This document shows, piece by piece, positions 37,972 through 64,000 of a stretch of 64,000 nucleotides of DNA (position 1 is its first letter; each line of letters begins with the position of its first letter). The stretch is from Eledone cirrhosa (Eukaryota): NCBI GenBank assembly GCA_964016885.1, contig OZ024741.1, positions 88,164,001 to 88,228,000 on the forward strand, read 5' to 3'. The notes beneath the pieces are model-generated. The model ran no database searches. It worked only from the letters and a program-made list of their open reading frames with translations, and was not told the DNA's origin. Made by a program: the position numbers and the translations under genes.

Positions 37972-38061
37972 AACAAAGTCAATCTGTAAACGCAGAAGTG
38001 GATATTTCAAAAAACGTTGCAACCGGAGGAAGACAGGAAGACGATACTTTGGTTCATGGAA

Positions 38062-38320: not shown

Positions 38321-40011
38321 AATTCTAACTAGGAGACCAAATGATTCTCCGCTTCAGAGTTAAGAATAAAGTAAATAAAATACAATACAGAGGTAATTGA
38401 TATTAAATAAATACATACACGCATCCAAATACGTACATACACAGGCATACGCGAAAACACTCGCCATAGGTATACAAACCACGCACATATAAATATGTGT
38501 GTGTGTGCGTGTATACAAATAAATAAGTAATTAAATAAAAGTATATAAATAAATAAATACGTATATAACAAGCGCACACATACCTACATGTAAATACACA
38601 AATATTCGGAGACGTACGTCAACCAAAACATGAAGTACACATATACACACACCCAACATACGTACGAACCCGCATACTCACACAGACGCAAAACTCCCGT
38701 ATACACATAACCGAAAGCATATGTACCAGAATATATAAAAATATACGCCATAACATATACAATCAAGTATACGTACGAGAAAGTATACGTACCTTCACAA
38801 AACATACAGGTAATATATACTTCCCTATGCAAATAAGTAATGGTATCAAGATAACATATACTTAGCTACCACATCAATACGTAAAATATCTGCGTATAGA
38901 TCGTACTAACCATACAGGAAAGTTTTGTGCAATTTATGTTTACAAGCCAAAATTGCCTCAGATTTTTTGTTTAAGATGTGGTCTGTGGCGTAGAGTATTT
39001 CCAGGGCCTCAGCGGCGCAGAGGTCACACGGTCTTTTATCTCCGTTATACGATCTAGCCCTAGCTAGGATCTCCCAGTGTAACTTATATTGGGTGTGGTT
39101 GTCTTTTAGACTCCAGATATAAGCTGAAAGTGACGTCATATTCCTTCTTAGAGGGTAACAAAACAAATGGGTATGCATGTAAAGACCCTGCTTGAATCTA
39201 TTGGCGGTTAACCCTATGTAGGCCCTACGGGACGTGGGTGTTTCAACCTTACATTTGTAGACAATGTTACTAGAGAGGCATTTCCTGGATAGGGGGCAGT
39301 CAACCCGATTCCTACAATTACAGTTAGTACTAACTACAGGGTTGCACGTGTTCCTACGGCTAAGTAGTTTAGCTAAATTTGAAGCTGTGATGTTATGTGC
39401 AAGGTTAGGAGTCGTAGAGTAAGAAATTTTAATAGTATTTCTATTAAAAATTTTACTATATTTATGTGTAGGAGGGAAAATGCTTCGTAATAAGGGATAG
39501 AAAGATCTTAGCTAATGGTGTGGCCGCCGCCATATTATATAGTGGGTTATACCATATAATGCGACGGGATCTATTTCTTCTAGGCCTATTCTCGTACTCT
39601 GTATATGCTACCTTATCGACAAATCCACTCCGAGCAAGAGCTTCATTGTAATAAGTGGAATGGTCGTTGAAAATATGCTCGTTAGTAGATAGACGGGAAA
39701 GCCTCAATGAAACGTTTCTTACCAGGTTCTTGGTTATGCTGGCAGGGTGGTGGAATGCTAACTTATGTAATTAAGCGTATCATTCGGCTTTCTATACGGG
39801 TAATACAAGCCATTCGATAAATTGAGGGTAACGTCGAGGTAATTAACGACCGAGAGGTTGGCCTCAACCTGTATAGAGAGGTTGAAGCCTTTAAAGAAGG
39901 CTGTGAGTTCTTTTCTGAATCTGTCGCAAGCACGAGGGCCGCACTTAATCTGTTATTTTAATAAATATATATATGCGTGTGTGTTGTTGAATCTCTCTCG
40001 TTTCCGATGAC

Positions 40012-40277
40012 CAGTGGTCTCCAACTTTTTTTATACCATGGACCAGCTTCATGTCAGATAATCTTTCTGCGGACCGGTAGTTGCACATATGTGTTATTTA
40101 AGTGAATTTAGATAAAAAGAGCAATATGTTAAAGAAGATGAATATTGAATATTTAAACAAATCTTTTTAAATTAAAATCCAATATTCAATTTATCTATTA
40201 TATAATTTTAAACAAGTTAATTATTTCTTTGTGGCCTGGTAGCAAATGATCTGCGGACCGGTGGTTTGGGACCTCTG
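40012..40277. mobile_element. hAT (Charlie-like) MITE nested in a SINE
   Basis: TIR cagtggtctccaac / gtttgggacctctg, subterminal gcggaccgg motifs, right flank ctctag; the 8-bp TSD is not preserved. Confidence 0.75.
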
Positions 40278-41209
40278 CTCTAGTTGATTCAATCAATCGA
40301 ATTACTTGCTTGTAAAAATAACATGTAAGTGGCTTAGCATTCCACTAAGAGATTCAGTGTAATGTGTTACAAAACCAGTTCCTTGAATTACATGTACAAC
40401 TCATTTTTGTCAGCGGAGTTGATGGAAGCAATATGAAGTAAAGTGCCTGGTTGAAGGACACAGTGTGTCAGCATTCCTGGAATAAAACTCACAACCTTAT
40501 GATTGTGAGCCCAGCACCCTTGCCACAGAGTCACATGCCTTCACATTTATTAGTGGAGGTTAGGTCAAGCCCTGTAAACATCATCTCTCAGTTGAATAAC
40601 AGACTGGCATGGTAGTTTAGCTTTGGTAACTAGATAAGATCTCAAGTTTTAAACAAGGCATATAGTTGAAAAGGTAGTAGTCAGATACAAGTCCAACATT
40701 TAAAAGGCTAAAGATTGGCCACTACAACTATTCATAATAATCTCTTATTTTTTACAAGACATCTTTTGTGGGTTTGCTAGTTGTAGTCAGTTGAATTAAA
40801 CCCTTTTAATACTGACTCTACTCAGACAACTTCTGCTTCTTTGTCGATACAAAAACCTTTACTTTTAAAGTGTTCATGTTTATTAAACCATTCTATCAGA
40901 CTTTTATATAAGAACTGTTTAACTTATCTTCCATACATCACTTTAATATACTAATTGACAAAAATGTTTACTAAATGCTTCAAATACTCAATTGTTTTTT
41001 TAAGAATTATTTAAATAACTAGGCAGTGTATTTCGTTAAAATATAGGAGGGTTAATTCCACTAATTAAGGCTTACATATACCATACTTTGTTATATTAAA
41101 AAAGGTAATGGTTTTGTATCAGGAAGGGGATCCGACCCTAGAAAAACTGCCTTAAAAAATGTCTTGTCTAACCCATGCAAGCATGGAAAAAGCAGATATG
41201 AAAAATAAA

Positions 41210-41240
<31 letters not shown>

Positions 41241-41259
41241 CACGCACACATACACACAT

Positions 41260-41298
<39 letters not shown>

Positions 41299-42609
41299 TA
41301 GATAGGCAGATAGAAAGAAATGGCAACTTGGAAAGCTGTAATGTGTGTTTTATAATTAATATGTATTTTTATGCATATATGTGCATAATACACTGGAGAT
41401 ATTTAAGTTTGCAGTGTTCTGTTTAGAGAATGATTCTATTTATATATTAAGCAGTAGTTTTGTTTTTATATTTTGATTGAGCTATATAAATAGCTGAATA
41501 ACTTTACCAAAGCATTTTATGTTGAAAAATAATTTTTGACAAGATACATGCTTTGTTAATTTTGTGTGTTGTGTATGTTGTCTGTGCATATGAGAGAGTA
41601 CTATCAAAATATTGTCAATTTTTTAGAACCCCGAGGGTATTGAGGTAGTGACTTGGCAGAGTAATTAGAACATTGGATAGAATGCTTTCTATTCTGGCTC
41701 CCTGCACTTTAAATCCCAACAAGGTCAACTTTGCCTTTCATGCTTTAAGTTTCATTAAAAAAAGAAAAAGCCATACCAGTCCAGTACTGGTTTTGATTCT
41801 TCCTCTATCTCTCTTCTTTTTGAAGAAACAGGCTGTATTCAAACTAGGAGAGGTGATGTGCTCTACTTGGTTTAAAATGCCCAAGAAATGCTGTATGTCA
41901 CTATAACTCCACCAGGAGTAACAGGTTCATCCATACATACATAGGGGTCATTGAACTAGACACTGCCTTTCATAATTTTTCTAATGTTTTTCTTCAGAAT
42001 TTTCTATATCTTTCTGAATTCACTATTCATTAATTATTTTTACTTTACCATTTTGACTAGATGCTTAATTTTTGTTGTTTAGCCTTAGGTCAGCCCTGAT
42101 CAAACAGATCTACAGTTATGTGCTTTTCAGCTGCAACCATGTAATCATTTTTTTTTCTTTTTTTTTAGGGGAAGGGGTTCATATAGTGTATCTAGGATTA
42201 TGTTATCCAATGTTTCCCTCATTTTTTGAGACACTAGGATGCCCCAGTTACTGAATTTGACAGAATATCCCCTAAACTCATGATATGCTGTGTGTGTGTG
42301 ATTCTAATCATTGCTTGAACCATTCTCCTCTGATAAAATCAAACAAAAGTTGTTTTTAACCATATATTTCTGCATTGTCATCATTATGCAAATCCTTTGT
42401 GGTAGACTAAGATATTCCTTGGTAATGGTTGAACAAGTTTTCAATTTATCAGTCGCCATTTGTAGTATTTGTGTATGTATATAGTTGATGTGTGTACGTG
42501 TGTGTTATTAAATCATTATAAAAATGATCAAACTGGATCACAGTTGTGTTTTCAATATAACATATTTGCAAGAAAAGCTGTTCCCTACTAATACAAATAT
42601 ATACATATA

Positions 42610-42618
<9 letters not shown>

Positions 42619-42682
<64 letters not shown>

Positions 42683-42693
42683 ACACACCCACA

Positions 42694-42771
<78 letters not shown>
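42619..42771. repeat. (CA)n microsatellite
   Basis: CA run of about 150 bp. Confidence 0.99.
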
Positions 42772-42773
<2 letters not shown>

Positions 42774-42820
42774 AGCCAAACTTAAGGCCCGTTTACTTTC
42801 AGTACTTGCTTTTATTTCAG

Positions 42821-42840
42821 CTCTGGTGACATCTGTCATG
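42821..42840 (+). CDS. Candidate 20-nt microexon (phase 2 to 1 reading SGDICH)
   Basis: tacttgcttttatttcag|CTCTGGTGACATCTGTCATG|gtatcc; UGC upstream. Confidence 0.3.
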
Positions 42841-43499
42841 GTATCCTGTGGGATTATCCATTTATTCAGAACTGGTGGGTTTTTAATGGGTCTGCTTTCG
42901 GAAAAAAAAAATTCTTGCATTAAATTTTTCCTCTTTGTTTATATTTCTTCCACATTGAAACAATTTTTTAAAAATACCCTGGCACCAGTTTTTATTATTT
43001 TTCCTCCACATTTATTTCATATATATGTATATGTATATGTACATATGTATGTATACACATGCATATATATATATAAACATACATACACACACATATGTAT
43101 GTGTGTAATTATTTTTTAAATTCTGGCTGCTCTTTATACATTTCCTTCTGAAAGATGAAGTTGATATCATATTGTGCTGTTGTGGCATTCATGCCTCCAT
43201 GTCACACATATCTTGCTTTTTTCTAACTTGCTTCTGGTTATGAACCTGATACAGGTTTTTTAGTGCTGCAGTCAGACCATGCCTCCCACTCTGCATTGTT
43301 AACTTTGTTTGCTTTCACCGAATATTTCCCTAACCCCAAAAATATTTTTCATGTATTGTGTGTGAATGTGAGTATATATATATACCATCATTGTCATCAT
43401 CATTATCATACTTCTGCATTCCATGTTGGTATGGATTGGACAGGTCAGAAACACCTCATATTTGCCATGGTTTCTACAGCTGGTTGCCCTTCCTCTGTT

Positions 43500-43543
<44 letters not shown>

Positions 43544-44861
43544 TATATATATACTTTTAGTCATATGCCAATGTTGAAGTGCATTTTTCAAACACCCACT
43601 TAATTTACAACCAGCAAAACGTACACATGCACACACACGTACACACACACTATTTGTTTAATCTGTGGGTTTGCCAGTTAGAATTTTCAGAATACTTCAA
43701 TTTTATCTGTGAGCATTTCTTGAAATTTTCTCCAACACAAAACAAATATTCAATGACTCAAATTTAAAAAAAGAGGTGGAAGAAATGGAAATTGGGGTGG
43801 GGGTAGCTTGACACTCTTTGCTGGATCATGCATCACAGCTGTACTCCGCAGACAAGATGGTGAAAGTATTCCTGTGGAGAGCAGTCAATGATACCTGTTG
43901 CACCAGCCATTCCATCTCATGTAGCTCATTTGTCAAGTGAGATGCCCTCTCCTCTATTTGCCATAGGAAATGACAGTCCAAGGTCTGAGGACACAGGAGT
44001 TAATTAGTTAATGATTGGTACATTATAGAACAGAATATTAAGATCTAGATAATTGATTTAGCCATCATTAGAACCTTGGACAGGTTGTTACGGTCTGTGG
44101 CTAGACGAGTCAGGACCTCTGTATTCTGAGTTCACAAATCCTGCCGAGATCCATATTACCTTCTTTTCATGGTCAATAAAGTACCAGCCTAGTGCTGGTA
44201 CAGCTCTCTCTCTCCTTCTAGATATCACATACAGGATGTTCCATTGGGTCAAAGAGGGGAGGGTATCTATCTACTCGTGACTGTATGAGCATCTAAAACC
44301 CTTAGCGAAAGCATGGTACATGCTACCAAGTTACACTCAATTGTGAGTGACAGCTGTAGTATTAAATTGTACATTGTGACCCCTTATATGGTGTGATACT
44401 TTTGTGAGCATCTTTTTACCACTGTGGCTCTCCTCAGGTTAACACATAGACAAGTGTTTTATGACCATTTTCTTTGCTATAGCTGGGGTTAGCTTTGTGG
44501 GTCTCATCACAGGCTTTTTGAAGCAATGTTTTATAGTTGGATGCCCTTCCTGGTGCTAACACTTTTAATCACCTTTTATGGCATACAGGGATACAGTGTA
44601 CATATTCTAAACTAGATACACATACAAGATAATTTGCATAGGTATTAACCAAAAGTAAGATATTTAAAATATTTATGTTTTTGTATTTGTAATAAATATA
44701 ATAGATAAAAATGATATTGTTACACTATGATAATGAAGAGAGGGGGCATAATTTCAAGAAAAATCAGAACATTTCCAATTGAGCTATATTTTCACTATAC
44801 AAGTTAAATACTTAAATCATTATATAAAAATAGGTTATAAACATTCACTTTTTATTCATTC

Positions 44862-44921
<60 letters not shown>

Positions 44922-45037
44922 TATTGAGAGTATTGTGGGTGTTTCAAAGAGAGGTTGCACATTTTAAATTATATCAATTGATTACAAGATATCATTTACT
45001 ATATAGTGTTTCAGTGAATTTTGGTCCTTTGTGTGTA

Positions 45038-45076
<39 letters not shown>

Positions 45077-45089
45077 ATCATCTCATTAT

Positions 45090-45233
45090 CATCACAGAAC
45101 AAAACCACTGCCTAAGGTTTCAAGGCCCAATATTGACCATATCTCTAGATTGTAAAAAGGATCAAAATCATTCTGGAGATATGATCAATATTGGGTCCTG
45201 AAACTTTAGGTGGCGCTTTCGTTCTGTGTATGA
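45090..45233. repeat. Inverted repeat with arms of about 60 bp
   Basis: cacagaac..cctaaggtttcaaggcccaatattgaccatatctc / gagatatgatcaatattgggtcctgaaactttagg..gttctgtg. Confidence 0.92.
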
Positions 45234-45549
45234 CCATCAATAAATAATATATATCAGCTCTCATCCCTGATTGTGCACTGTTTTCCTTTTTCCTTTTTCA
45301 CACCTATGGATATTTTATATATATATATATATAGAGAGAGAGATAGATAGATATTATCCCTAGAAGAGTAAAGAATAATTTGTCTGATCTTTCAATATGC
45401 TGCTGCTCTTGTGTTGTAGTAGTAGTAGTGACTCTGATATTTCTTCCTTTCCTTCCCCCTCTCTCTATTTCTCTATCTCTTTGCAAATGGGTGAGTAACT
45501 GCACCTTATATAGCATGGCTGCTTCTATGCTTCTCTTTTGGTGCTACAG

Positions 45550-45572
45550 CAATTCTTTAATATTTGTTGGCT
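45550..45572 (+). CDS. Candidate 23-nt microexon (phase 2 to 1 reading NSLIFVG)
   Basis: gctgcttctatgcttctcttttggtgctacag|CAATTCTTTAATATTTGTTGGCT|gtatga; three UGC motifs in the acceptor region. Confidence 0.3.
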
Positions 45573-46211
45573 GTATGAGAGCATCTGGAATATTTGGAGT
45601 AGGAGGGACTGGGCCAGTGGCTGTAAAACCCAAGGAACCCAACCTTGAATTCACATAACATTGTGATTTTTTACATTTAGTTGTGTGTATATATGTGTGT
45701 TTGAAACAACATGGCTAATTGCATTTTTGCATCTTTTGCTTTGTCTAAGTCTCACATAGCTTAATTCTACATGAAAATACATGCAACATACACACATAAA
45801 TGCATTCAGTAGCATTTGTTACAACTGTCTGTATCTTAAAAGCACTCAGCATGTCATAGGAGACATACCTGAATGTCCCTTCTTTTGTTTGTTTGTTTTA
45901 TTTATTTTCTCTTCTTCTCTGCTATTGAAAGGTGTGACATGGTACTTGTGTCATATTAATTCCCCCTTTCTATTTTCTAGTGTTTCAATTGTATTTCATT
46001 AAATATTTAACAAGAGGAGCTATTAAAGACAGCATGTATATTGTCATCATCATTTTATGTCCATTTTCCATGCTGGCATAAGTTGCTTGGGTCATCATGG
46101 TCCAAGAATTGATGGATCCTCTATGTTCCAGTAGAAAAATACTGTACTTACTTGGCATCAACTGTGTATATGTTTGTGAGACAGAGAGAACATGCATGCC
46201 ACACTATGACA

Positions 46212-46833
46212 TTCTCTCTCTCCCTTTCTCCTCTTTCCTTCTCTCTCCCTCCCCTTCCTCTTTCCTTCTCTCTCCCTCCCCTTCCTCTTTCCTTCTCTCT
46301 CCCTCCCCTTCCTCTTTCCTTCTCTCTCCCTCCCCTTTTTCCTTCTCTCTCCCTCCCCTTTCTCTTTCCTTCTCTCTCCCTCCCCTTTCTCTTTCCTTCT
46401 CTCTCCCTCCCTTTCTCTTTCCTTCTCTCTCCCTCCCCTTCCTATTTCCTTCTCTATCCCCCCTTCCTCTTTCCTTCTCTCTCCCTCCCCTTCCTCTTTC
46501 CTTCTCTCTCTCTCTCCCCTTTCTCTTTCCTTCTCTCCCCTTTCTCTTTCCTTCTCTCCCCTTTCTCTTTCCTTCTCTCCCCTTTCGCTTTCCTTCTCTC
46601 CCCTTTCTCTTTCCTTCTCTCCCCTTTCTCTTTCCTTCTCTCTCTCCCCTTTCTCTTTCCTTCTCTCTCTCCCCTTTCTCTTTCCTTCTCTCTCTCCCCT
46701 TTTTCTTTCCTTCTCTCTCTCCCCTTTTTCTTTCCTTCTCTCACTCCCCTTTTTCTTTCCTTCTCTCACTCCCCTTTTTCTTTCCTTCTCTCACTCCCCT
46801 TTTTCTTTCCTTCTCTCACTCCCCTTTTTCTTT

Positions 46834-46889
<56 letters not shown>

Positions 46890-46900
46890 ACCTCTTCTCT
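46212..46900. repeat. Polypyrimidine minisatellite (unit approximately ctctttccttctctctccctcccc) ending in (CT)n
   Basis: Almost purine-free tract of about 690 bp. Confidence 0.97.
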
Positions 46901-48779
46901 TCTCTCCACCCTCAAAACAATTTGACAATATTTGTTCGTGGAAAATATTTGCTAATATCTTTAAAAGTATTGATATAACAACAACAATATCAACACCAAT
47001 GATTATGAAGATGTTTATATTACTGGCAGAAATTGTTTACATATACACCCCATCCTAATATTTTACTTTTAAACTATAGGACCTTTACAACATAATTATT
47101 AATTAATGTAATTTAGATGTAGTAAATAATTATTCACCCATACAACAATCTGTGTGTGTGTCCACTTCTGTTTGTGCATGTGTATGTCCCTCTGTCTGTG
47201 CCTCTGTCTCTGTGTGTACAGTAAAAATGTGTGGCTTAGTGATTAAGGTGCTGGGCTCATGGTTGTAAGGTTGTGAGTTCAGTTCCCAGTTCACTCAGCT
47301 GGCAAAAATAAGTTGTACTTGTAATTCAAAAGGCCAGCCTTGTCACACAATGTGTATTACTGAATATTCCTGAGAACTATGTTATGGGTGCATGTATCTG
47401 TGGAATGTTCAACCACTAACTCATTAATTTCACATGCAGGCTGTTCCAGTGATTGAATCAACTGGAATACTCATCGTCAGACAAGATATCCAACAATGTG
47501 TGTGTGTGTGTGTGTGTGTGTGTCTGTGTGTGTTGCCCACAGACATTCTACTCAAGCTTCTGAGATAAACATTTCCTCTGTGGTATTCCTGGCCATCCAC
47601 TGCTGGTCAGGAATATGGTTGCCAAGGTTACTAATTAATTATTATTAAAATCTGTAAATAATTCCTACTTATCTATATTTCTCCATATATCTTTCCTGTT
47701 ATCATCTCAGTGATCACCTAATCACCATGACCATCATCACAATCACCCTAATCACCATGACCATCATCACAATCACCCTAATCATCATTACCATTACCAT
47801 AACCACCACCATCTTCATCACCACTTTTACCATAATCACTCACTGCTACAGCCATCATCACCATCTTTAAATTTAAAAGCTGAATCAGTTTGTTCAGTAT
47901 CTAATGTCAGCTTCTAACCAGGTGGGTTTGTTGTTTAATTATATTAAACGAAGATGATGATGATGATGATGATGATTAATCACTGTTTATGGTGGAGTCT
48001 AATATTTCACTATAATTTCCTCCTCCTCCACCTACCACCAGTGTCCTGTTACCTTACAATAATAATAATAATACACTCAATATTCCTGTTTATTCAACAT
48101 GTACAAGGGTTTTTTTTAAAGACACAGTAGTGATGTTAAGAGAACAGTTGGGTGGATTGAATGCATTTGGGCAATGATGCTATACAGTTAGCTGGTTCAG
48201 AGGAGTAGTATGTGTAGTAGCAGAAGAAAGGAGAGAAAGATAACACATTAATGGCTTTGGTGGTTTAGTTCAGTGAAAGTTTGTTAATCAATCAGATGGA
48301 CGTTTTTTATGTGATCTAAAATATTTGTATTGTAGTTGTGGCCAATGTTTCTTTTTTAGTCTAAGATCAACCCTCATTAAGTAGGCCTATGATCAAAAAC
48401 ATTCTAGTTATGACCATCCTGTCTGGGTTTTTTAGGTAAGTGTATCCATGACCAGATTATTCAATGTGTCCTTTCCTACTCTGATATGGCAAAATCCAAG
48501 GAAATTTGGCTGTTACTTTTAGCCAGTCAAATGGCCACAGATTCTCTTGATGGCTTGTATCTTTGTGTGTATGTATAGCAGCTGGAATTTTAGCTGTTAA
48601 ATAATGATAAAACTATAATTTTACTGAATTAATCAACAGAGGGGATGTTTTCTGTAGCCTTTTCAAGCCCTTCCCTACTTCCTGCTTCAATTATGATTAT
48701 TTTATCACATTAATCTCACCAATCTACAAATGCTTACAGGGTTCATGCATGCTTTCTCTCCAATATTACTGGAATGTAG

Positions 48780-50340
48780 ACATAGTTAGGAATAGGTGTC
48801 CAGAGTTACGCAGTCTTAGGAAAGTGAGTCTAGTTGGGAGCTGTAGAGGTTATTCATGAGGTGAGTAAAATAGAAATTAGTGTAGTATCAGTGCAGAAGA
48901 CAAAATGAGAACCTATATCATTGGAAAAACTTGTGGTTAATGTATGAAATCTTGACTGTCAAACATATTTTCTTCAATGTGTTTGCACGGAAAATATCAA
49001 CCGATGCTAATCAAGAGAATTTCAACTTCAGCTAATTGGCTACACAAACTATTATTTGTGATATGCATGGTTGACTTAGAATGCATAAACAAGGTCCCAA
49101 TTACTGGAAATAGAATGTGTTGTTAGCACACAGTCTACTGCCACTAGATTGGCAAATTTTTTAAGTGGCAATTGACAGGAGCAGTAGAAAAAACCCATTG
49201 AAGGGTCACTCTGAAGAAGGCGATTTAAGTAAAATCAATAGGATTTAGCAAAGAAGTAGATTAGACAGCAATCTAATGAACAAACCAATAGAAATGTCAC
49301 AACCAATATACTAGCAACATAAATGGTCAAAGACCATTTCCATTGCTGTGAAATATAAAGGTTGCATAATCAGAGCTAAAGCATGTGTTCTTAGACACGA
49401 GGGTAAGAAAGTTGTTCCATGGGTCTGGGTGGTAGAGGTGTAACATTGCAATAAAACCACATTCAATTTTTGATAGACCTGGATTGTTGCATGCTACTTG
49501 ATTTCAAGCAAATGTCTGCTGCTTTCAAACAGCACTTTGTTCAACTGTTTGGGGCAAACAGCAATAATGATCTGGAGACCATTGCAAAATTTAGTGCCTA
49601 CCTCTCAGTTGTGGCAAACAGTGGGAAACACTGTGAAAAGCAATAACAGCAGCTGGGATATGATTGGCAGTAAGTGATTCTACCAGTGGTAAATCTCTTG
49701 ACTTAGAAGATCTGCTCTTCGAACTTTATGTACATATGTCCAGACTTGTCTTGATAAATATTCCCTGAGCCAGAAAGTGGTGATGCTGCTGATGAGAGAT
49801 ACAAACAAGGGCATAGATAATTTCTGGTTGATAATTCTGCTGAATGCAGAGTTTGAGGTTTTGGCCAAGGTGTTATCAAAGAAGTTGGCTCTAGTCAATA
49901 TTTTAGTCAGCAATGTATAGGCCTGGTTGATCTTGAGCAGTGACTTCAGTTCACTGATTGGGGTAAATGATGACTTATCAAAACCCTTTTTGAATCACCT
50001 ACCCAGTCAATTTTTTGTATATACTAACTCTCAAGCCAATTTTGCAGAAACGGTGGGTTTTAAGAGTGCAATTGGGATGTGAAAAGCTGTGGACACAACT
50101 GAAAGGACTAAAGACAGGCACTTACCTCTATAGCCTTCATCAAATTTTTTCAAGTTTCACTTGGAGAGGAAGATGAGGAGGTTGAGATAGTTGCTGTTTT
50201 CCTTATTATATTTGTTAAAAGGTGGGCAAGTGTCAAGAATGTCCTGCTCTGGGAAATACAACTGGGAGATGGTTTCAGAGTAATCGTGGATCTGTGAGGT
50301 TCCTTGATTTACTCTGCTTGGCAATCTTCCTTTTGGTACA
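48780..50340 (-). mobile_element. Highly degenerate LINE-like relic
   Basis: Less AT-rich non-SINE block; minus-strand FTPIS...YTLLTKILTR resembles the RT motif RPISLL..YKILTKIL. Confidence 0.35.
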
Positions 50341-51343
50341 TCATCATACTTTTATTTGATTTCAATTTGTACACCCACAGTTCTTGTAATGTATCCCTGT
50401 AATATCCACTCATTCATCATCCTTGGGCTAATAATAAATAATTTTTTTATCGTTATCATCATCGTTATTATCATCATTATTGTTATCATTATTATTATTT
50501 TTATTGTGCGTTCTCACTGCATTACCAAGCACAGTTCTGTGTGCCTTGGGGATGTGCAATGTTATTTCTATTGTATTATTATTATTATTATCAGAATTGT
50601 TTGTGTCAAACAAACTGCCTTACCATATTTCTTCCAGGTCTTTAAATTTCAAGTTAAAACCTCACTGTGATGAACTTTGCCTGTAATTCTTCCATGGTCA
50701 ATAAAATATAGGACCAGTTAAATACTAGAGTTGATTTAATCAACTAATGCTGCTCTTAACCCAATAAAATTCTGGTCTTGTACCTATATTAAAAATAATT
50801 ATTACTATTTAAAATTAGAAACCATTATTACTATATTTTTAATTTTATAGATAGGACCAGCTAACAATATTGCTTATAGGGAAAACACATTTTAATATAT
50901 GTTTTATTTATTTTGTTTCTTTATTTTCTCTATATTTATTTTCCTTTTTATTCAGTAAAATTTCCCAATAACAACTACCATACCTCTATATTACAAAAAT
51001 AGCACCACCACCATATGATGTAATGCTAGCATCTAGCATGTTACTTAGCATGCTTCAAATGCTTGTCTCATGTTTCTGCTATAATAATGCTTTGCTCACC
51101 TCTCTTTTGACTTGTTTCTTTTTGTAGTTTTTTTTTTAATTTAATTTAAACTGTTTCCTCTCTATAATTAATATTTGTATATGTGCACACTTTTGTTTTA
51201 TAATTTTATAATTTTTATTGTTTATTGTGTTTGTTGTTTATGTGTTTCTTTGTAAAAAAATAAATAATGAATATCGAAAAAATAAGTAAAATCAGCTTTG
51301 AGCTTGGCAGACGAAATGAACTCATTCTCTTTCCCCCCTACAG

Positions 51344-51364
51344 GATCTTTCTTCGAGAGAATGT
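51344..51364 (+). CDS. Candidate 21-nt frame-preserving microexon (GSFFERM in phase 1)
   Basis: gaactcattctctttccccccta-cag|GATCTTTCTTCGAGAGAATGT|gtaagt: branch-like ACTCAT, strong pyrimidine tract and consensus donor. Confidence 0.6.
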
Positions 51365-53242
51365 GTAAGTATGACCCCTTTTGTTAGGGGAAATATTGGG
51401 TTGTTTTGCAAAAGCAGAAACTGACAGAGGGAGAGAATGAAACACAAACATTTCAAAAAGCTGAGAGAAAGTATATTTATATATCAAACCTGACCTATTA
51501 GCTGATCCTCAGATGAAACCAATGAAACATTATTTCCATTGGTCTTTTCAAAACTATGTTAAACTATGTTCCTTTCTCTGTATCACATTGGCTTCACCCA
51601 AAATACAAAGTCTTAGGCCTCTTCTGGAACTGTTCAAAGCATTTTGGCTCTACCTAAAGAGAAATTATACTATTTACTTTTTAGTTGTCCCTATAAGATT
51701 TATAAATGTATAAAATTATTTCATTAACATTTTTATGGATGGGACATGGCCAAAAGCCTGAAGTTTGCTTCACAATTATGAGGATCCTTGTTCAGTCCCA
51801 CTACATGGCATCTTAGCCAAATGTCTTTTGCTATAGTCTTGGGCTGACCCAAGCCTTGTGAGTGAAATTCAGTGGACATAAACAGATGGACTGTATCTTT
51901 AATTTAAAGGTTCAGCCTTGTTACACATTGTCATGTTGAAACTCCCTGAGAATTACATTGACATATCTATGAAATACTCATATTGGCTATTCCATTGACC
52001 AAACAACTGGAGCACTCATCATTGAAACCAACAAAGCTCCATTTATTCTTAATGTAGCTTAGTTTACTCACACACACACACACACATGCAAACTTAACTC
52101 TTAACATCCTGTAATGATTTAGCAGAAAAAACTGCTTATAGTAAAAAATTACAGTATTAGATTAAAGACTTTAATTTGTAATGTAATGCTGTCATAGTGC
52201 TGTTTTCTACTTTTCAAGAAAGTTTCACTAAAGCAGTTTCATGGAGTACAGGATGTTAAAAATTAAATTATAGAGAAAGCCCTACTAACCTTGCTAGAAT
52301 ATTGGCTCCAAGTAAAGCTATCTAGCCTGTCAAAATTATCAATAAACTATCCACATAAATTATATTTTCATCTGTGATAGTTTCTTTCATCTCAGTTGTA
52401 GCATATCTCACAGTGTTGTTTGAATGACACACTACTTACCTGCTCTGTACATTGGCTGAGAGGTTTGTATGATGTCTTCAGACAAATGCTTAATGGTATT
52501 TGTTCTAGCTCTTTACATTCTGAGTTCAAATCCCACCAAGGTCAACCTTGCCTTTCATCCTTCCAGGGTCAGTAAAATATAGTGTCAGTTAAGTACTGGG
52601 GTTGATATAATCAATTTTCCCCTTTTCCTAAACTGCTGACCAATGTGAGAAAGAATTAGAAAAATAGACCAACTGCACATACAAACATTATCACATTTGA
52701 TGACTTGTTGAGCAACATTTAGTAATGGATAATGCTTGCTTAATTTTACTAATATAAATGAATTACTAAATTATTCACACATACACTCACACACACATAC
52801 ATTGGTGAATTAATTACTTAACTAACTTTTCGTGTTTTTTTAAATTAAGGGTTGCTTAGAATATTAAATATATTTTTGCACTTAGGGCAGGGATTAATCC
52901 ATTCAACTAGAATTTTATATATCAGTTTAGAATAGGTACACCATATCCCTACATGTTGTAAGTAGCAACTAAAGGGTTGGTATCAAGCAATGTAAAACAT
53001 TGTCTCAAAATGTCTCCTCCAACCCATGCCAACATGGAAAAGTTGACATAAAAACAATGATGATGATGGATAATTTGCATAAGGGTACGGTTATTTTTAA
53101 TAGCTCTATACTCTTGTAGGCAAAAACCATTCTGTTTTGAAGCAAACTGTGTTATGTGCTTTGCTTAGGTACTGTAGTAACACATGACCACCTATCTAAA
53201 TTCAGTGATACCGCAGTCTTAATCCTGTTTTTACACACACAC

Positions 53243-53578
53243 TGGCTTAGTGGTTAGTGTCGGGCTTACAATCGTGAGATTGTGAGTTTGATTCTCGAAT
53301 CAGGCTTTGCGTTGTGTTTTTGAGCAAGACACTTTATTTCACGTTACTCCAATTCACTCAGCTGTAGAAATGAGTTACGATGTCACTGGTGCCAAGCTGT
53401 ATTGACCTTTGCCTTTCCTTTGGACAATATCAGTGACGTGGAGTGGAGAGACTGGTATGCAGGAGCGACTGGTGGTCTTTCACAAAACAATCTTGCCCAG
53501 ACTTGTGCCTCGGAGGGAACTTTCTAGGTGTAAATCCCATGGTCATCCATGACCAAATGAGGTCTTTACCCTTACCCT
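53243..53578 (+). mobile_element. tRNA-derived CORE-type SINE family B (related copies at about 7105-7345+, 7950-8268-, 26690-26955+, 31600-31760-, 40280-40525-, 47228-47490+, 60290-60525+)
   Basis: tggcttagtggttag A box, gagtttgattctc B box, CORE-like ttgtgtttttgagcaagacactttatttcac. Confidence 0.85.
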
Positions 53579-53623
53579 TTATATATTTATTTATTTATTT
53601 ATTTATATATATATATATATATA

Positions 53624-54497
53624 CAGGGTGCAGACAATATTTGTTCGCAAGATTACTGTCTAGGAAAAAATAACACAGTAGTTTTATTTTTTAAGATTTA
53701 TTTATCAAACTTGGGTCAGTTTGTCTTCATGACTTGTTCTTTCGATCTCACTCGATAAACCCGCCATTGGCTTTGATGACGGCCTCAAGGCGGCTTCAGA
53801 ACCGGCTACAGGCCTTCATCACTGTCCCCTGATTTAGGCCCCTAAAGGCACTTGTGATCCTGGCCTTCAGATCGTCTTTCGTATTGCAGCTAGATCTGTT
53901 GGTGTCTCATTCCACTGTGCCCCACACAAAGAAGTCGAGCTGGGAGGCCAGATGTCAAGTGAAGTGTGGTCGACAAAGTTCTCTGACAGCCAGGCTTGGG
54001 TCTTTCGGCTGGTATGGCAGGGCGTTGAGTCTTGCTGCCACACGTACGGCTTACCTGTAGCTACCTGGTCGATCCAGGGCTTTACTACCTCGCTCAGAAC
54101 TCGGATGTAGCCATCAGTGTTCAGCTTGAGGCCCTCAGGGAAGAACTCGGGCGTTCTGAAGGCATCAGATCGTCGATCATGTGTTTTCCTCTCTGATGTT
54201 GCTTTGTAGTCGAATCCTGAATCTTCCAATTCCTTTCTGACCTTTTCCACCATTCTCCTGCTGACGCTGAGAAAGTCTGAAATTTCCTTATTTGTCCTCC
54301 CGGCGCAGATTCCAAGAAGAACTCCGTGTCTCTTCCACAAATTTGGAGGTTCAAAATTATTCATAATCAATTATTCTGAAAATAAATAATGGAAATATAG
54401 TCACTATTTTTATGAAGACAAGAGTGACAACGAAAGTAAAAAAAATTTGCATAAAATTAGCAGTTGAAAATTGCGAACAAATATCATCCACACCCTG
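53624..54497 (-). mobile_element. Internally deleted Tc1/mariner-superfamily element (maT/DD37D-like)
   Basis: TIRs cagggtgcagacaatatttgttcgcaa / ttgcgaacaaatatcatccacaccctg flanked by TA in (TA)n. ORF 53867-54370 has an HTH-like N-terminus fused to YVWQQDSTPCHTSRKTQAWL..WPPSS. Confidence 0.92.
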
Positions 54498-55849
54498 TAT
54501 ATATATATATGTGTGTGTGTCTGTACACACATAATATTAATTATATATTGTAATATAAAATATGTATTTCAACATATAATTAATATTGTTTCTGTAATAT
54601 TCTTGAAGTATTCTCTGGAATGGATTTTATTCACATCTTACTTCCATTGAGATCTTTACAAAACAATGAAATTGAGATGTTTTTGTTTGATTTATGTTCA
54701 GTTCTCATTTACAAAAAGAAGTGTTTGGTCTCATACTCAATTGTTATTATTGTAGTAACAACAATAAAGTGGATTGGCAGAATCGGTAGAGTGGCAAACA
54801 CTATGCTTCGCAACATAGTTACGGCCCTTTACATTATGTGGTCAAATCCCACTGAAGTTAGCTTTGCTTTTCATCCTTATGGGGTCGATAAAATAAAGCA
54901 CCAGTAATGCACTGGGTTCAATTTAATCGACTTTCCCCTCTTCTAAAATCATTGGCCTTGTGCCTAAATCAGAGACCATTATTGTAGTAGTAACTCACCT
55001 CTCTTGCTAAAGCTGGGGTTAGGCTTGCAGGCCTCATGACAAGCTTCTCCAGTGTTATCTAACCTCTGCACCCCACCCCCCAGTGTCTAACATAATTTTA
55101 TATGAAAACCATATCTTAGCAATGAAATGATTAATGTTTTTAATAAATCCCTGAAAATTCATCATTAATTAATTTGTGCCTAAAGTAGAAACAATTAATT
55201 AATTGAAATAGAAAGTGTTTCATTAGAAATACAGTCTTAAAAGTGTTAAACAATATTGAATATCTCTGTATGATGATGTTTTTAGTTTATTGATTTTGAG
55301 ATCTGTTATAGCCATTAGTGAAAGTGGATAGCATTGAAAGATGAATACTATTGTGGGGCCCCTGCAGCAATAGTAAAGGTGGTGGTAGCATTGGCAGCAA
55401 CAGTGAATATGATTAATAATAATATTGGTGATTTATTTCTTTGGCACAGTCTGTCAAAGTGTATGAGTAGGCATGGCTGTGTAGTTAAATTCACATTAGA
55501 ACAACATGGTTTGGGGTTTAATTCCACTGCATCGCATCTTTAGCAAGTGTATATACACACACACACACTTGCATACACACATATATACACTCGCACACAC
55601 ACGTGGTCAATGCACAGGAGCAGTAGGCAGCAAGTGCTCACAGGAAACAAGCTCTACCTAATTCTTAGGTTTCTGAGAAGCAGTTGACAGCTTCTGTTAC
55701 CTGGGTGACTAAATTAGCAGTGGAGGTGGGTGTTCCAAATGAACAGTAGCCAGAGTGAGAATGGGATGGGGGAAGTTCAGGGAGCTACTGTCGCTGCTAG
55801 CTACAAAAGGTTTTTCTCTAAAAAAGAAGGGCAGCTTGTATGATTTGTG

Positions 55850-56110
55850 TATACCAACAGCAATGATGCATTGTAGTGAGACCTGGACACTGTGTGCTTA
55901 GCTTACATGCTCTGATGGATGTGTAATAGTAATATAAATGAACTGAGAGAGAAACTGGGAATAAGAGGGATTAGATGCAGAGTGCAGGAGAGGAGATTAC
56001 AGTAGTATGGACATGTGATGCATACAAAAGGGTGCATGGCACTCAAAGTTGATGGAAGCTATGGAAGAGAAAAATGTAAAGAAGCTTGAGATGAGGTGAT
56101 AAAAACTGAC
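55850..56110 (+). mobile_element. RTE-clade LINE 3' fragment
   Basis: L*WMCN..LREKLGIRGIRCRVQERRL..YGHV. Confidence 0.75.
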
Positions 56111-56792
56111 CTCACACAATTGCAACTCTGAAAAGCGATTGCACAGAATCGAAATCTCTGATGTTAGATCTGCAGAAGACCCACCTTCCCATCCATGTGC
56201 ATGGGATGAATCAAACATCTAGTGGTCTCTATTATGCACCACTTCTCCCCCTCCTCCTTCCATACACCTGCCATGTTTTAACACTCCAACCTTTACTCAT
56301 GTCTCAAAATTCAACACTTCACCAGCTAAGTACTTTTTCAATTCCCACCCTACATCCACCCCCCACTTTCAACATTTGATGCACTTCTCTTGACCAACCC
56401 ATGTATACAAGGATGGAAAGATGAACACCTCCAACAATGCTGCTGAAATGGCTAAAAGCTCTTAATCTACCCTGTAAGGTAGTCATGCTAGTGACACAAC
56501 AGTAGCCCGTAGTTCACCATGTAAGACATTCATGTTGGTGTCATAACAAAAGAGCACCTAGCCCTCCATGCAAGTTGATTGTGTAGTTCAGCGTGACACA
56601 ATGTGTGAAGCATACTCTGTCAGATACCATTTAGAAAACCCCGATGTGGAGTGCTTAAGATGGAACACACCATAGATATTTGTGCAGAAGCTCATCTAGT
56701 ATGCATATGTATATTTGCATGTTTTCACAGTGAATGTTTGGGCAGCAGTTCAAAACCCGAAGTTTAATGGAACAAGTACCTCCCTTTCTTGA

Positions 56793-56988
56793 CCTTTTAG
56801 CATTTAAACCGGCCGTATCTGGTCAGAATTCTCTCACCTCTTTCTGTTCAAACCAGCCGTAACTGGCCACTCATACTGATGTTAAGGTATTGTTTTCAAA
56901 ATAAATATCAAAATTCGATATTATGTGAGATAAAGCCTTTACTGCGAAAATACAATAATAAATATAGAGTAATGCAAATGCTAAAGGG
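56793..56988. mobile_element. piggyBac-type MITE family 1
   Basis: Same internal sequence as 30161 and 34692, with degenerate TSD. Confidence 0.85.
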
Positions 56989-57644
56989 CTAAATAAGTAT
57001 AAGTCGGCATCAAGAAGGGTATCTGTTTGTAGAATACTACCTCAAAAAATACACACATGGAAAAGTGGAAGTAAAATGAGGATGATGGTAGTGATTTAAG
57101 AAATAGTGTTGGTATTGGTATGTGTGTTGGAATGGTAATGGTGATAGAGGTGTTTGATAAGACATTATCTGTCATAGTGTCTATCAATCCCCCCTCTCTC
57201 TCCCTTTCCATTATTTAATTCCTTCTTTCTTTACGATTTTCCTACATCTGATACACACCACACTCACACACACCTCTCTCAAAGGAACAGGAAACATAAG
57301 CTATTACAAGCTAATCTCACTCTGTAATAACTAATCTAGGTTTGTCATGCTAAATAACAAGAGGCTTCTCATTTCTTCTTCATCACTACCACCACCAAGA
57401 ACAACAACAGAAACTATAAAACTACTAATAGTTTGTTATGCTTAGTCAATTGTATTGTCACATGACACTTTATGCTTTCATAATCTATCTGCAATGTTTC
57501 AAACTGCTCCCAGAGCTGCCTTTTTTTCCTTTTTAAATATAAGATGCCCACCTTTGCTGATGCTACCCTTCCACCAACATCTATAACATTTATAACTCTT
57601 TTTGTTTAGAACTGTGCCCTTCCCTTATTTTTGTATTTATATAG

Positions 57645-57647
57645 AAA
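57645..57647 (+). CDS. Candidate 3-nt microexon AAA
   Basis: tgtgcccttcccttatttttgtatttatatag|AAA|gtatgt. Confidence 0.25.
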
Positions 57648-60592
57648 GTATGTTAGCAAATATACTTTCAATATTCAGATTTGCTTAACGCTTTGTAAAA
57701 CAATTATTTATATATATATGTATATACACACATATGTATTATACTTTTGTTCTTATATATTAATATTACAATGTAGTGATGGTTGTAGTCATAGTAGTAG
57801 TAGTGTTAACATTATTAAACAATCACTTTATTTCAAGAATATATATAATTTGTCTGGTATGAAATATTTTTAAAATGTATAAATTTTCTTCAAAAAAATA
57901 ACATTGACAAAGAAATGAAAAGTGTATGGAAAATTTGTCTGAATTTGTCCTTTATTTGCATTTTGGTACAGACTTGTTTGAGTGTGTGCATGTATAATAC
58001 ATTATTTGGAATGTAAATTTGAAGATTCTTGTGTGTCTGTGTGTATGTATAATACATAATTGGAATGCAAACTTGAAGACTCATTGGAATATATATAAAA
58101 TCTTCATTGATACCAAACCCTTCTGATATCAAACGATCTGAGATTACCTTTAGTTCTGTGATACAAAATTGTTTATTTTAAGTGTTGATTTTTATTTAAA
58201 TACCTGCCATCGTAATTTTAAGTAAAAATCTTTAAGTTCTGCTCCAAACACCAGCTTAAGAAGAACGTGATATTACTAAATACTTCAAAAATTCTTGATT
58301 ATTTGAAAATTATATGTAGTACCCATGCTAGCGTGGAAGATGGACGTTAAACGAAGATGATGATGATGAGTGTTTTCTATTAGAAGAGCTATATTTTAGC
58401 TCACTTCATCTGTTGCTGACTCTCTATCAATATCTTGCTGTATTTATTTCTGTAAACTGTCTAGAACTGTTTGTAATGTAAAGAACTCATCTACAAATCA
58501 CCACATACAAATTTTTTTTTCTTTTTGCTATTGTTTAACAACTGAGAAAGAGTTCAGTATATGTGGAGTAGATTTATTTGTACAAAACTGATAGTTCATT
58601 TAGTTACTACTCAGTTTCTCACAGGGAGTGAATCACTAATGTGTGTGTGTGGTACAATGAAATACTAGTGTTGGTACCAAATCAAGCACTCTATGCACAT
58701 GCAGAGTGTATATAATAGGAAAAACAAGACATCCTCGTTTTTTCTATTTTATATATATAATGACAAAATTGCCAACAAATATGATTAAAAAAATGAACAT
58801 AGAAAAGTACAGGAATGGAGATGGTTAAATGAGTCAGGATCATAGAAGTATTTGACAACATGAAGGTGGTAACATAAACAACAGAAAAAATGTTTGTGCT
58901 CACCAGCTGTTGAATGAGACTTGCAAAGTTTCAACCTTTTTTCTGCATTATGAATTCAAATCCTACCTAGGTTCACTTTGCCTTTCTTCCTTTCAAGGTC
59001 AATAAAGAAGGTACCTGCCGAGTGCTGGTGTAGTTCACTCTCATTCCAGCTGTCACATCCTGGATGTTCCACTGGATAAAAGTGGGAGTGTCATGAGGTT
59101 ATCTGTGTCTACACAAGACTTCATGGGCACCTAAAACCCTTAGCAAAAATATGGTGCATGCTACCAAGTCATACTTGATTATGAGTGACAGCTGTAGATT
59201 TTTAGTACATATATAAGTAATCTAATGTGTCTGGTGAACCGCTCTCCAATAAATATTCACAGGGACATCCTGAGAATACAACTTTTGTCTCAGACCTTCT
59301 CAAGTGTTGATATATCATTTTCTCCATTTAATGTCTGTTTTCCATGCTTGCACGTGTTAGACAGGCTGTGAAATAAATGGTTGAAGAACAAGAATCACTG
59401 TTAGAAACGATAGTGTTGATATGACATAAATTATTCACATTAGTTGAAGAAGACACATCACAATCAGATTTACATTAGTATGTACTCATATTTATGCCTT
59501 CAGCAACATGACCGGACATGACTCGAGAGCTGTTAATGGAGCTGCTGTGCAGTTGCTCAACTTGATGGAAATAGTAACCAAATCTTCCTGAAATCATACC
59601 ATAGGGGAGAAACAGAAAGAGTTGGATCGGCTAATGTCTGAGGCATGAGGTATTCCAGATTACAAAACAGTACACTAAAGAAAACCATAATGTTGGAGAG
59701 AAGTGCATATGGAATAATAGCAACATATTCTTATTGACACTGAAATGAAGTGCTGTGTCAGTATGGAAAAGGCAATGAATATGATGACAATAATTATGAG
59801 ATGTATGAGAAAGGAAGGGATACATTTATACCTATATGTATAAATATATGTGTAAAAAGTTTCATATTTTAATGTTAGTTGCATTGAGTATGGTGCATGT
59901 TGTGTTCTTTTTTCTAAAATGTTCATGTTCTATAATCCAGTTGCATTTAGTTTATATAACTTTGTGTGCAGTTTCTTAATATTTTGTTTTGGGTGTTTGT
60001 TGTAGCTAGTATGCTAATATAAGAAGGAAAAAAAGGAAAGGTGCCAATCATCAGATCAGGCCAGTGAAACACTGTTTCCATTGGTATTTCCATAGCTGAT
60101 AATATTTGCTGGTTGCAATACCTGGCAGAAGGAGCAACATGAAATAAAGTATTTTGTAAGAACACAACCCACTGCCCGGTCTAATGCCCTAACCACTAAG
60201 CCATGCACCTTCACATACTATAAAACAAAAATTAAATATCTCCCCACCACCAAATCGTGTGGTAATGAGCTTGTTTCCCCAGTGGCATGTTGTGTCCATG
60301 AACAAGTCACTTTATTTCACATTGTTGCAGTTAACTTAGTTGTCAAAAAAATTAGATGTACCTGTAATTTGAAAGGCCAGCCATGTCACACATTGCATCA
60401 CATTGAATCTCTGAGCACTACATTAAAAGTGCATATGTCTGTGGCATGCTCAGCCACATGCACAATCATTTCACAAGCAGGCTGTTCCATTGTCTGAACA
60501 ACTAGAACACTTGTAGTGGTCCAGCTTGCACATATATATATATATATACACACACACACACGCACACACAAACATACACACATACATACATG

Positions 60593-61119
60593 ATGGCTGC
60601 CCCCTCGTTATCAAGTATGGCCATTGCATGATATACCATTATTAATCATTATTAATTAATTCTATCATGCAATGCCGTGCATGAAGATATTTTTTAAAGT
60701 GAGGAAAGACTGTGCACTGAACCAATCCCACTCTCTGAGCGACAGTAGCTATAACCCGAAAAGAAGAAAAGATCAACATCATCGGTAACTACTGAGCCGC
60801 AGGTTTTATATCAGAGTTATCCCAGTTTCCTGAGAGACCTTCTCCTAGAAGAATGCCCTGACAAAGGCTAGAGGTCCTTCACTCCCAGTGGTTTAACCGC
60901 ACGGTACATGTGTATATACATATTTACACACTTTTGGATGGCCGTTGACTCTTATGAGTTCTGCCCTTTGCAGGTTTTGTTTTTTGTCCTGCAGGGTGTC
61001 CAAAATCACCCTCCTCACTAAGTAAACTTGGTGGGGTTGCCGGTTTAGTCGCCGACGACCCGACCATGCGACAGGTTGTACTGGGTTACATGTTACCAGT
61101 AGCACTCAAGTGACCCGAC
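60593..61119 (-). mobile_element. GC/CpG-rich retroelement fragment, probably an RTE 5' region, bounded by (CATA)n
   Basis: Composition shift with retained CpGs, inserted between catacata repeats; family assignment is inferred. Confidence 0.45.
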
Positions 61120-61463
61120 ATACATACATACATACATACAATTCCAGATAACAAAAGACAAATACAGATGCAGTTGCAGAAAATCTTATTAGTTTCACAT
61201 TTGCTGTATCCTACTTTTTAGAATAGGTACACTGTATCTTTACATTTTGTAAGAGGTGACTAAAAGGATTGTCATTCGGCTGTGAAACACTACCACAAAA
61301 ATCTTATCCAACCCATGCCAGCATGAAAAATGGGAATAAAATAAAGATTGAGACCTAGTCAGTTTTTACCACTAGTTGTTTTTTAAAGTTACTTATATTC
61401 TTGTATTCTCATAAAAACACTCCTTCCATATATGCGCGCACACACACATACACACATACACAC

Positions 61464-61574
61464 ATGTATATATACTCACACATACCCAGACACACATGTG
61501 CATAGACACACACACACACACAGATGTATATATACTCACACATACCCAGACACACATGTGCATAGACACACACA
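61464..61574. repeat. 60-bp-period tandem duplication in low-complexity DNA
   Basis: atgtatatatactcacacatacccagacacacatgtgcatagacacaca occurs twice. Confidence 0.9.
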
Positions 61575-62229
61575 TACATATAACTGATTATAGGAGCATT
61601 CCATATGTAGTTACAGTATTTCTATTATGGTGCGACTTTTTACATTTGATACTGCACCCACTATTTTTATCAACCACTTGGTCTACAAGATTCGTATTCT
61701 CCATAATGTCCTTTTAGTGTTTAATTTCAGAACATACAAACTTCAGCTTGTTTATTTATAACTGTTAGATTTTCAGGCCAACATCATCGAGTGAAGTAGG
61801 GGGTGGAGGAGAGCAAATGTGTGTTTGTGAAAGAGAGAGAGAGAGATAAGTTGAATGTGACCAGGTTTCGATTTTAGCTTCTAGATTTTTTATTTATATT
61901 TGTTTCTTTCTTGTATTGCTAATATTTTGAGAAAAACCTGAAATATCTCGCATTCCCATTTTCTTTTCTCGTATCAGTCTGTTTTGATCATTTTAAAGAT
62001 ATCTCTTTCACCTCTCCCTTCTCTCTCTCTCTCTTTTCAATGGAGCAGATGATAGATAAGACTTAATGCCATACTCATTACTTATTTATTTCTGTGTTCT
62101 TGTACGTAAATATTTAGTTCATGAATGTTTGAAGTAAATAAACTCAAACTTTCAAACAAGAACTATTGAGTTTTTAGGACATTTGACTTTTAAATCTAAA
62201 AATAGCTAACATTTTTGAGGAAAACTGTT

Positions 62230-62248
62230 ACACACACGCACGCGCACG

Positions 62249-62336
<88 letters not shown>

Positions 62337-62351
62337 GAGGGGGGGGGGGGG
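62230..62351. repeat. (CA)n microsatellite followed by poly-G
   Basis: Seen directly. Confidence 0.97.
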
Positions 62352-62398
62352 TAACCACAATAAGTGAAGTACTCAATACATTAGTAAAGTATATACAG

Positions 62399-62488
62399 AA
62401 TTTAATATAGAAATGGCTTCAATAGGACTAATGATTTCTTAAAAATGAAACCGTTCTAGTCCTGTAGAAGCCATTTCTATATTAAATT
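62399..62488. repeat. Inverted repeat with arms of about 32 bp
   Basis: aatttaatatagaaatggcttc..ggacta / tagtcc..gaagccatttctatattaaatt. Confidence 0.9.
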
Positions 62489-62489
62489 T

Positions 62490-62520
<31 letters not shown>

Positions 62521-62797
62521 CTTTTTCAATTCTATTGATGAAAAAATACTCTAAAAAGAATAAACAACTTTGAAAATGTCTATTTTATTGGAGTCTTCTT
62601 CCCTGTATTTATTCCCCTATAAAATTGTTGTTTCATTAGAAACAGTTTCATGTTATATAAACAATCTTGTTGTATCACCTATTACTGGTTTGCATTCCAA
62701 ACATTTGATTTAAAACTAGAGGAAAAAAGTATTTAATAATAATTCTGAAAAATTATATTTATTTACTTATTTTAATTTTATGTTTTCTTTGTAACAG

Positions 62798-62836
62798 CTG
62801 TGCCTGGAGAATTAAATACTAGTTCACATTCATTAA
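62798..62836 (+). CDS. Candidate 39-nt frame-preserving exon (xVPGELNTSSHSL)
   Basis: tttatgttttctttgtaacag|CTGTGCC...TCATTAA|gtaatt; alternative donor CCA|gtatga after 62853. Confidence 0.3.
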
Positions 62837-64000
62837 GTAATTTTTATTTTCCAGTATGATATCAAATTGAGTGTTTCCTGTTGCTGCTAATGAAAACAAA
62901 CCATCTGGGATAAGTGGGAACTCCACAATGTGCTCTCCCACACACCTTTCTGTTAAGAAAATATAATCTGGAACTGTTCTTTAACCCTTTTGATACGAAA
63001 GCAGCTCTGGTTTTACAATACTAAGCTGTTTATTTTAAAATGAAAACATCATCAACATCATTGTTATTTTTTTTTTTTAAATGGATATAAAAATGACGAC
63101 GATGATGAGGATGATGTTCACATTGATCTAAAATCCTACTATAATTTTATGTAAGAACATTTAAACTATGTTCCAAACACCAACTTAATAATGAGACAGT
63201 TATATTTCCCTCAAATACTTGATTATTTTCAGAATGATTTGAAAATCAGGCATTGTATTTCAATAGAAATATTGTAACGAAAGGGTTAATGTTTAATTAA
63301 CCATTTCCCTGTTTCATATGTGCATATCTCCACCTTCTTTTCTGCCACAGTCTATGGTTGTTATATATTCAGCTACAGTGATCTTCTAGAGAAGCTAATC
63401 CAGCCAAATAAATTGTTACAGCTTATTACATATGCTTGAATATGCACACACACAGACATGTATTTTTCCTATTTTATACTTGTTTTGGCATTATATGTAT
63501 TAAATATACAAGTTGTGTGTGTGTAAATTTAAGATAAATTTAATGTAGGTGGAACTACAGTTTATAAACCTCACTTTGAAAAACATTCTTATTCTCTTTG
63601 TACACAAAAAAACCCCCCAGATATTTCCTTTGCATGTTTCACCGTTAGTTGACCACCTATCAGAAAATTTCCTTTATTCTTCTGTCTACAAGAGAGTTAT
63701 AGTCAAACACTATATTAAACATAAGCTAGGAATTAACTAAACTAGCTTATCTAATTTGCATAATGTGCAATAATTGACTGTGTAATTAATTAAACTGTAT
63801 GTATATCTGTATTAAGTTTATCCTAGTTTTCTTTTCTAATATAAGTTGTACCGTACTTAAATATTTATTATATATAAATATATTTGTGAGTGTGTCTTTT
63901 TGTCTAAAATCCTTTAATGTATCTGGTCTACTTAATCTTGTAGATGTGATATATAATACTGACACTGTGTAAAAGTGTGTTTCCATTTGGATTGATCTAT

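Follow-up and report, generated by a model that had tools for sequence, protein, structure and literature searches.

The 64,000-nucleotide stretch of Eledone cirrhosa DNA analysed here (the window) lies within a plus-strand gene that its sequence identifies as the octopus NRBP/Madm pseudokinase gene. An exon scan of the window and 200 kb on each side placed the exons of this gene between about -75600 and about 94000 in window coordinates. The largest scored exon has a single match in the 3.0-Gb genome and is 100% and 99% identical to the nuclear receptor-binding proteins of Octopus bimaculoides and O. sinensis, respectively; an O. sinensis isoform is, in turn, 61% identical to mammalian NRBP1. 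The encoded protein has the features of the NRBP/Madm class, namely, a WNK-like kinase domain without HRD and DFG (HGN replaces HRD, and GSV/GSG replaces DLG) and a CCT-like domain at the carboxy terminus. No solved NRBP structure was among the matches of the kinase segment. NRBP is a kinase-like scaffold, the mammalian form of which activates the WNK kinases of salt balance, and the WNK-SPAK pathway sets ion balance and, in neurons, chloride. Just upstream of NRBP is a minus-strand gene that we take to be a PP2C-type phosphatase; the next neighbours are presumably an EB1-like gene on the far side of the phosphatase and, downstream of NRBP, a gene with ankyrin repeats.

Within the window, an upstream exon matching the WNK kinase segment that ends in KIG is separated from the next constitutive exon by a 62-kb intron (Table 1). 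The intron carries four phase 1-1 cassettes of 36, 69, 54 and 21 nt (A to D), the last of which is the microexon studied here. The order of A, B and C in the window is the same as in the Octopus isoforms. Other 3-6 nt candidates flanked by AG and GT were also seen in the intron (57645-57647, 13037-13039 and 7558-7563), none of them in the listed isoforms. Decayed open reading frames of mobile elements are located at 27797-28204, 53867-54370 and 38906-39770; two look like mariner/Tc1 transposases and one like a Penelope-type element. The gene also has a second 21-nt exon (GHSKKKQ, phase 0), located some 13.5 kb before the window begins; Octopus isoforms contain it, but the mammalian NRBP1 used for comparison does not.

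Table 1. Positions of the cassette exons, splice signals and flanking exons of the NRBP intron, in window coordinates.
Feature	Position	Strand	Description	Basis
Constitutive upstream NRBP exon	1711..1805	+	ends in phase 1 (KIGS+G)	skipping contig links it straight to the downstream exon
NRBP intron with four cassettes	1806..64000, ending 27 bases past the window end (64027)	+		skipping contig joins the flanking exons
Cassette A	12819..12854	+	36 nt, DTGILYPLSSET	RefSeq isoform annotation only
Cassette B	29405..29473	+	69 nt, GFFSRFLLVDFMVTWDSCEEREK, GAG acceptor	RefSeq isoform annotation only
Cassette C	42821..42874	+	54 nt, ALVTSVMVSCGIIHLFRT	RefSeq isoform annotation only
3' splice region of D	51320..51343	+	candidate branch A, pyrimidine tract, CAG	acceptor position agrees with a contig loose end
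Cassette microexon D	51344..51364	+	21 nt, phase 1-1, encodes GSFFERM	contig, RefSeq isoforms, frame
5' splice site of D	51365..51370	+	GTAAGT	sequence; contig exits the exon here
Constitutive downstream exon	starts 28 bases past the window end (28-111 beyond)	+	starts TT GCT CCA (APD)	

D is an internal exon within the 3-27 nt range of microexons, has AG and GT borders, is spliced, is both included and skipped, and keeps the reading frame. A preliminary description of the window had proposed it as a 21-nt microexon open in all three frames, and both statements held: a contig splices D to the next exon and RefSeq isoforms of two Octopus species contain it. The frame in use is phase 1, which introduces no stop; the readings DLSSREC and IFLREN were rejected because the flanking exons fix the phase. 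The last T of D turns the junction codon from V into F, the skipped form reading KIGS-V-APD and the included form KIGS-GSFFERMF-APD.

The splice signals of D make it the top acceptor-donor pair of the whole window when scored with a crude weight matrix. The donor, previously described as perfect, is so on the intron side, but the exon ends in a non-consensus TGT and the matrix score is 0.7 bits. The branch-like ACTCAT (51320-51325), with a putative branch A at 51324 (-20 from the exon), fits the loose yUnAy pattern, but a strict YTRAY is absent within 175 nt upstream. The reported 20-nt pyrimidine tract (51321-51340) is there, with C or T at 18 of its 20 positions, and leads into the CAG acceptor (51341-51343); the AG-free zone before the exon spans 31 nt and the 60 nt upstream contain no UGC/TGC. 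The retention of CpGs in a CpG-poor region (observed/expected ratio of 0.8 versus 0.25 for the window) reflects two CpGs in 60 nt and has no weight. The claim that some 700 bp around D are free of transposable elements gained indirect support, as positions 51250-51450 match the genome once and nearly all 16-mers of 50900-51800 are unique within 464 kb. A search pattern shaped on D itself found one site on the plus strand of the window and none on the minus strand, and recovered at least one site in 5 of 100 block shuffles; hence, the sequence alone provides only modest evidence for the exon. About 60-85 nt upstream of D, an AATAAA followed by an A-run (51258-51285) could be what is left of the tail of an old retroelement, or else a poly(A) signal within the intron. 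The 3' half of D (51355-51363) is also complementary to its own pyrimidine tract (51323-51331), forming a potential stem of 9 bp with the acceptor in its loop, with weak statistics (z of -1.16 on 131 nt and of -2.07 on a hand-picked 57 nt).

Transcript contigs were drawn from one run (X4; 88 million letters) of the same organism, made from another sample of the same study. We take X4 as RNA because its contigs contain exon-exon joints, one with GT..AG ends, and have almost no intron cover outside repeats. The main contig opens with the downstream exon, from its first base on. Among the 6 of 12 loose ends that were listed, two contig ends enter this exon: the first carries the terminal part of the KIGS exon and the second one G followed by the whole 21-nt D. 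Thus, inclusion and skipping forms both exist, the contigs reporting presence rather than levels. The preliminary description had proposed a junction k-mer as a check. This k-mer corresponds to the join of the KIGS exon with D, and it was matched at the protein level in O. sinensis isoform X10, but the contig retained only one upstream base.

RefSeq XP models are predictions, and in these GSFFERMF is present in 9 of the 22 named Octopus isoforms, 5 from O. bimaculoides (XP_014780127.1 and XP_014780133.1, for example) and 4 from O. sinensis (for example, XP_029642071.1 and XP_029642068.1). D occurs in them alone or after A, B or C. Cassettes A (5 isoforms) and B (8 isoforms) are never together in the 22, suggesting from the isoform sequences that they may be mutually exclusive. 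It had been anticipated that stop codons would limit the combinations of D with a 23-nt and a 3-nt candidate. This was not borne out, for the partners of D in the isoforms are the 36-, 69- and 54-nt cassettes, all of which are phase 1, and no listed combination therefore gives a stop. The AAA site at 57645-57647, used by no listed isoform, may be that 3-nt candidate. The comparison covered 36 proteins listed from four cephalopod clusters (15 of the 23 members of one cluster were listed), 35 of which span the site. Cross-species conservation, another check proposed earlier, was found in part: the D peptide of this genome recurs unchanged in the two named Octopus species, but the exon is in none of the 13 site-spanning cuttlefish, Argonauta and other proteins of these clusters, and a region-restricted protein search (28 matches) returned no new carrier. 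Cassette A, by contrast, differs among this genome and the two named species (SSET versus SSEN), and an A-like insert is present in cuttlefish. That D is a genuine exon is practically certain. It is also already known from publicly available gene models for two species of octopus, and our finding is for this reason a confirmation and not a discovery.

All four cassettes add their residues where the activation segment begins, after KIG (DLG in WNK) and upstream of the HVKT threonine. This residue corresponds to human Thr232 and is kept in octopus, 11 residues past the junction residue. PMC12266122, which describes the 535-residue form, reports that NRBP1 has none of the motifs DFG, HRD and VAIK, that it activates WNK4 in vitro and that WNK1 phosphorylates it on Thr232; in the models of that study, NRBP1 forms dimers with itself and with WNK1 via the pseudokinase domain. 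A link between NRBP, WNK and TSC22D is also supported by 10.1101/2024.02.13.579840, in the available text of which we found no mention of the D exon. AlphaFold2 models of two O. sinensis isoforms, one including D and one skipping it, place, at low confidence, a helix at residues 202-206, formed by FFERM when the exon is included and by PDAIH when it is skipped; with D, PDAIH moves to 209-213, again at low confidence. The pLDDT of block 201-210 is 49 with D and 60 without it, and residues 206-222 fall below 50 with D. The hydrophobic moment of D (0.64) is attained by 3.7% of random 8-mers. By eye, the CCT-binding patterns RFxV and RxFxV fit neither D nor the vertebrate insert described below.

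Optional inserts are found at the same protein position in other animals. The 8-residue insert VFHRIFAN is present in 14 of 119 vertebrate NRBP1 matches (96 have no insert, 8 have other text and 1 is unmatched); further inserts of this type are found in mammals and sharks, and rays have a second cassette. The NRBP2 paralogue has VWHRIFSN-type inserts as well as skipped forms. Among invertebrates, inserts were identified in a clam (ESNLERLFG), a mussel (GFAKTFT and a 16-residue cassette), snails (four short inserts), one tick and one further case, and were absent from the listed insect, annelid, brachiopod and hemichordate proteins, mostly represented by one isoform each. From the first six columns of the vertebrate insert we built a profile and scored with it the 13 of 15 inserts that were long enough. 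With a core chosen post hoc and an offset of 2, D scored p 0.002 (about 0.026 after 13 tests), followed by the clam insert (0.018-0.025), which aligns with D without a shift; the other 11 were above 0.05. In the literature within reach, which left out most subscription papers and several supplements, we found no description of the octopus exon or of the shared insert site. Three supplementary files of PMC9699675 gave no NRBP match, and the portions of the PMC13281805 supplements that were available held unrelated rows only.

Taken together, D is very probably an alternatively spliced, frame-keeping microexon of NRBP with a predicted short amphipathic helix that likely tunes the contact of NRBP with WNK kinases or with another NRBP. 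In the models, inclusion of D would add this helix at the start of the activation segment. FFERM would then form the helix that follows the KIG strand and, with low confidence, push the PDAIH helix and the HVKT threonine seven residues on. The swap of helices may tune the NRBP-WNK or NRBP-NRBP contact, a step we hold somewhat below even odds, and the same tentative standing applies to the proposal that it alters NRBP-driven activation of WNK. Displacement of the HVKT threonine may not matter, because, in the available text of PMC12266122, the Thr232Ala variant still rescues SPAK/OXSR1 phosphorylation in human cells.

The reading of D as a chance splice-like motif of the intron that is never used could draw on the shuffles that reproduce such a site and on the weak exonic bases of the donor. 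It is refuted by the junction contig and by the RefSeq isoforms in two species, and retains hardly any probability. Another reading accepts D as real but holds it to be near-neutral: an insert restricted to Octopus and included at a low level, which the flexible loop of a dead kinase would tolerate. The many unrelated inserts at the NRBP site across animals, the low confidence of the loop in both AlphaFold2 models and the absence of D from the listed cuttlefish, Argonauta and other proteins are consistent with such tolerance. Against it, the D peptide is identical in the genome and two named species, where cassette A varies, D was assembled as its own contig in X4, and similar cores are found in clam and vertebrates. 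We regard near-neutrality as rather improbable and favor the tuning role of the microexon.

The origin of the exon is a separate matter. D could be the orthologue of the 24-nt exon of vertebrate NRBP1 and NRBP2, that is, an ancestral bilaterian microexon with a hydrophobic-x-R-hydrophobic-F core and shifted splice sites that was kept in vertebrates and some molluscs. The shared protein position, the resemblance of FFERMF and the clam ESNLERLFG to the vertebrate core, the final F of D, which requires that the exon end in a T against the consensus, and the insert in both vertebrate paralogues and in sharks all point this way. In intermediate lineages, the protein lists offer the clam and mussel inserts alone as weak candidates for such an exon. 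However, the core is offset by two residues and the exon is 21 rather than 24 nt, so both exon ends would have had to shift; the motif was picked after the match had been noticed; and the insert is absent from the listed insect, annelid, brachiopod and hemichordate proteins, mostly one isoform each. Moreover, 11 of the 13 scored inserts do not reach p < 0.05 for resemblance to the vertebrate core, which argues that the intron readily gains unrelated exons. According to a 2026 preprint on convergent exons, recurrent gain is the rule and far outnumbers conservation, the APBB and MADD microexons being the only ones it names as ancestral (10.64898/2026.09.05.749416). We consider orthology unlikely; recurrent gain at a permissive intron is more likely than one exon shared with vertebrates. 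Quite unlikely too is the wider proposal that the GSFFERMF, ESNLERLFG and VFHRIFAN/VWHRIFSN exons all go back to a single microexon in the last common ancestor of bilaterians, a splice switch that swapped the first helix of the activation segment and so set neuronal WNK output, the octopus array being a later expansion. Were D ancestral, it would be one of very few microexons shared across the bilaterians. A single NRBP position at which octopus has four optional inserts, mussel and rays have two each, and clam, snails, tick and the two vertebrate paralogues have theirs is a pattern that we did not find in print, and a splice switch at the NRBP activation segment would give a direct, testable handle on the WNK pathway.

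At the protein level, the NRBP isoforms of Octopus in RefSeq are identical to the exon described here in peptide, position and cassette order. The VFHRIFAN and VWHRIFSN inserts of vertebrate NRBP1 and NRBP2 resemble D in their position after KIGS, the coexistence of included and skipped forms and a similar F-x-R-x-F core, but differ in length (24 versus 21 nt) and in the placement of the core, which is two residues off; in addition, the 62-kb intron of octopus houses three further cassettes. A 24-nt mouse Nrbp1 exon (MmuEX0032302), which from its length presumably encodes VFHRIFAN, is assigned to the Neural control group, outside the eMIC targets, in the available table S2 of PMC8797185. By analogy to this mouse exon, there is about an even chance that inclusion of D is neural-biased. 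D further shares with the neural microexons controlled by eMIC (SRRM3/4, Srrm234) its length, frame keeping, long UC-rich tract and 31-nt AG-free zone, and differs from them in lacking a UGC near the acceptor and a strong CUAAY branch point (eMIC features from the available part of PMC8797185). The NRBP site as a whole, with its distinct short inserts at one position in octopus, clam, mussel, snails, tick and vertebrates, is reminiscent of the type I convergent exons, defined in the accessible text of 10.64898/2026.09.05.749416 as exons that are independent of one another yet lie in a common coding region of orthologues; the main text available from that study, which includes O. bimaculoides, does not name NRBP, and the likeness to its type I class is in the arrangement of the inserts.
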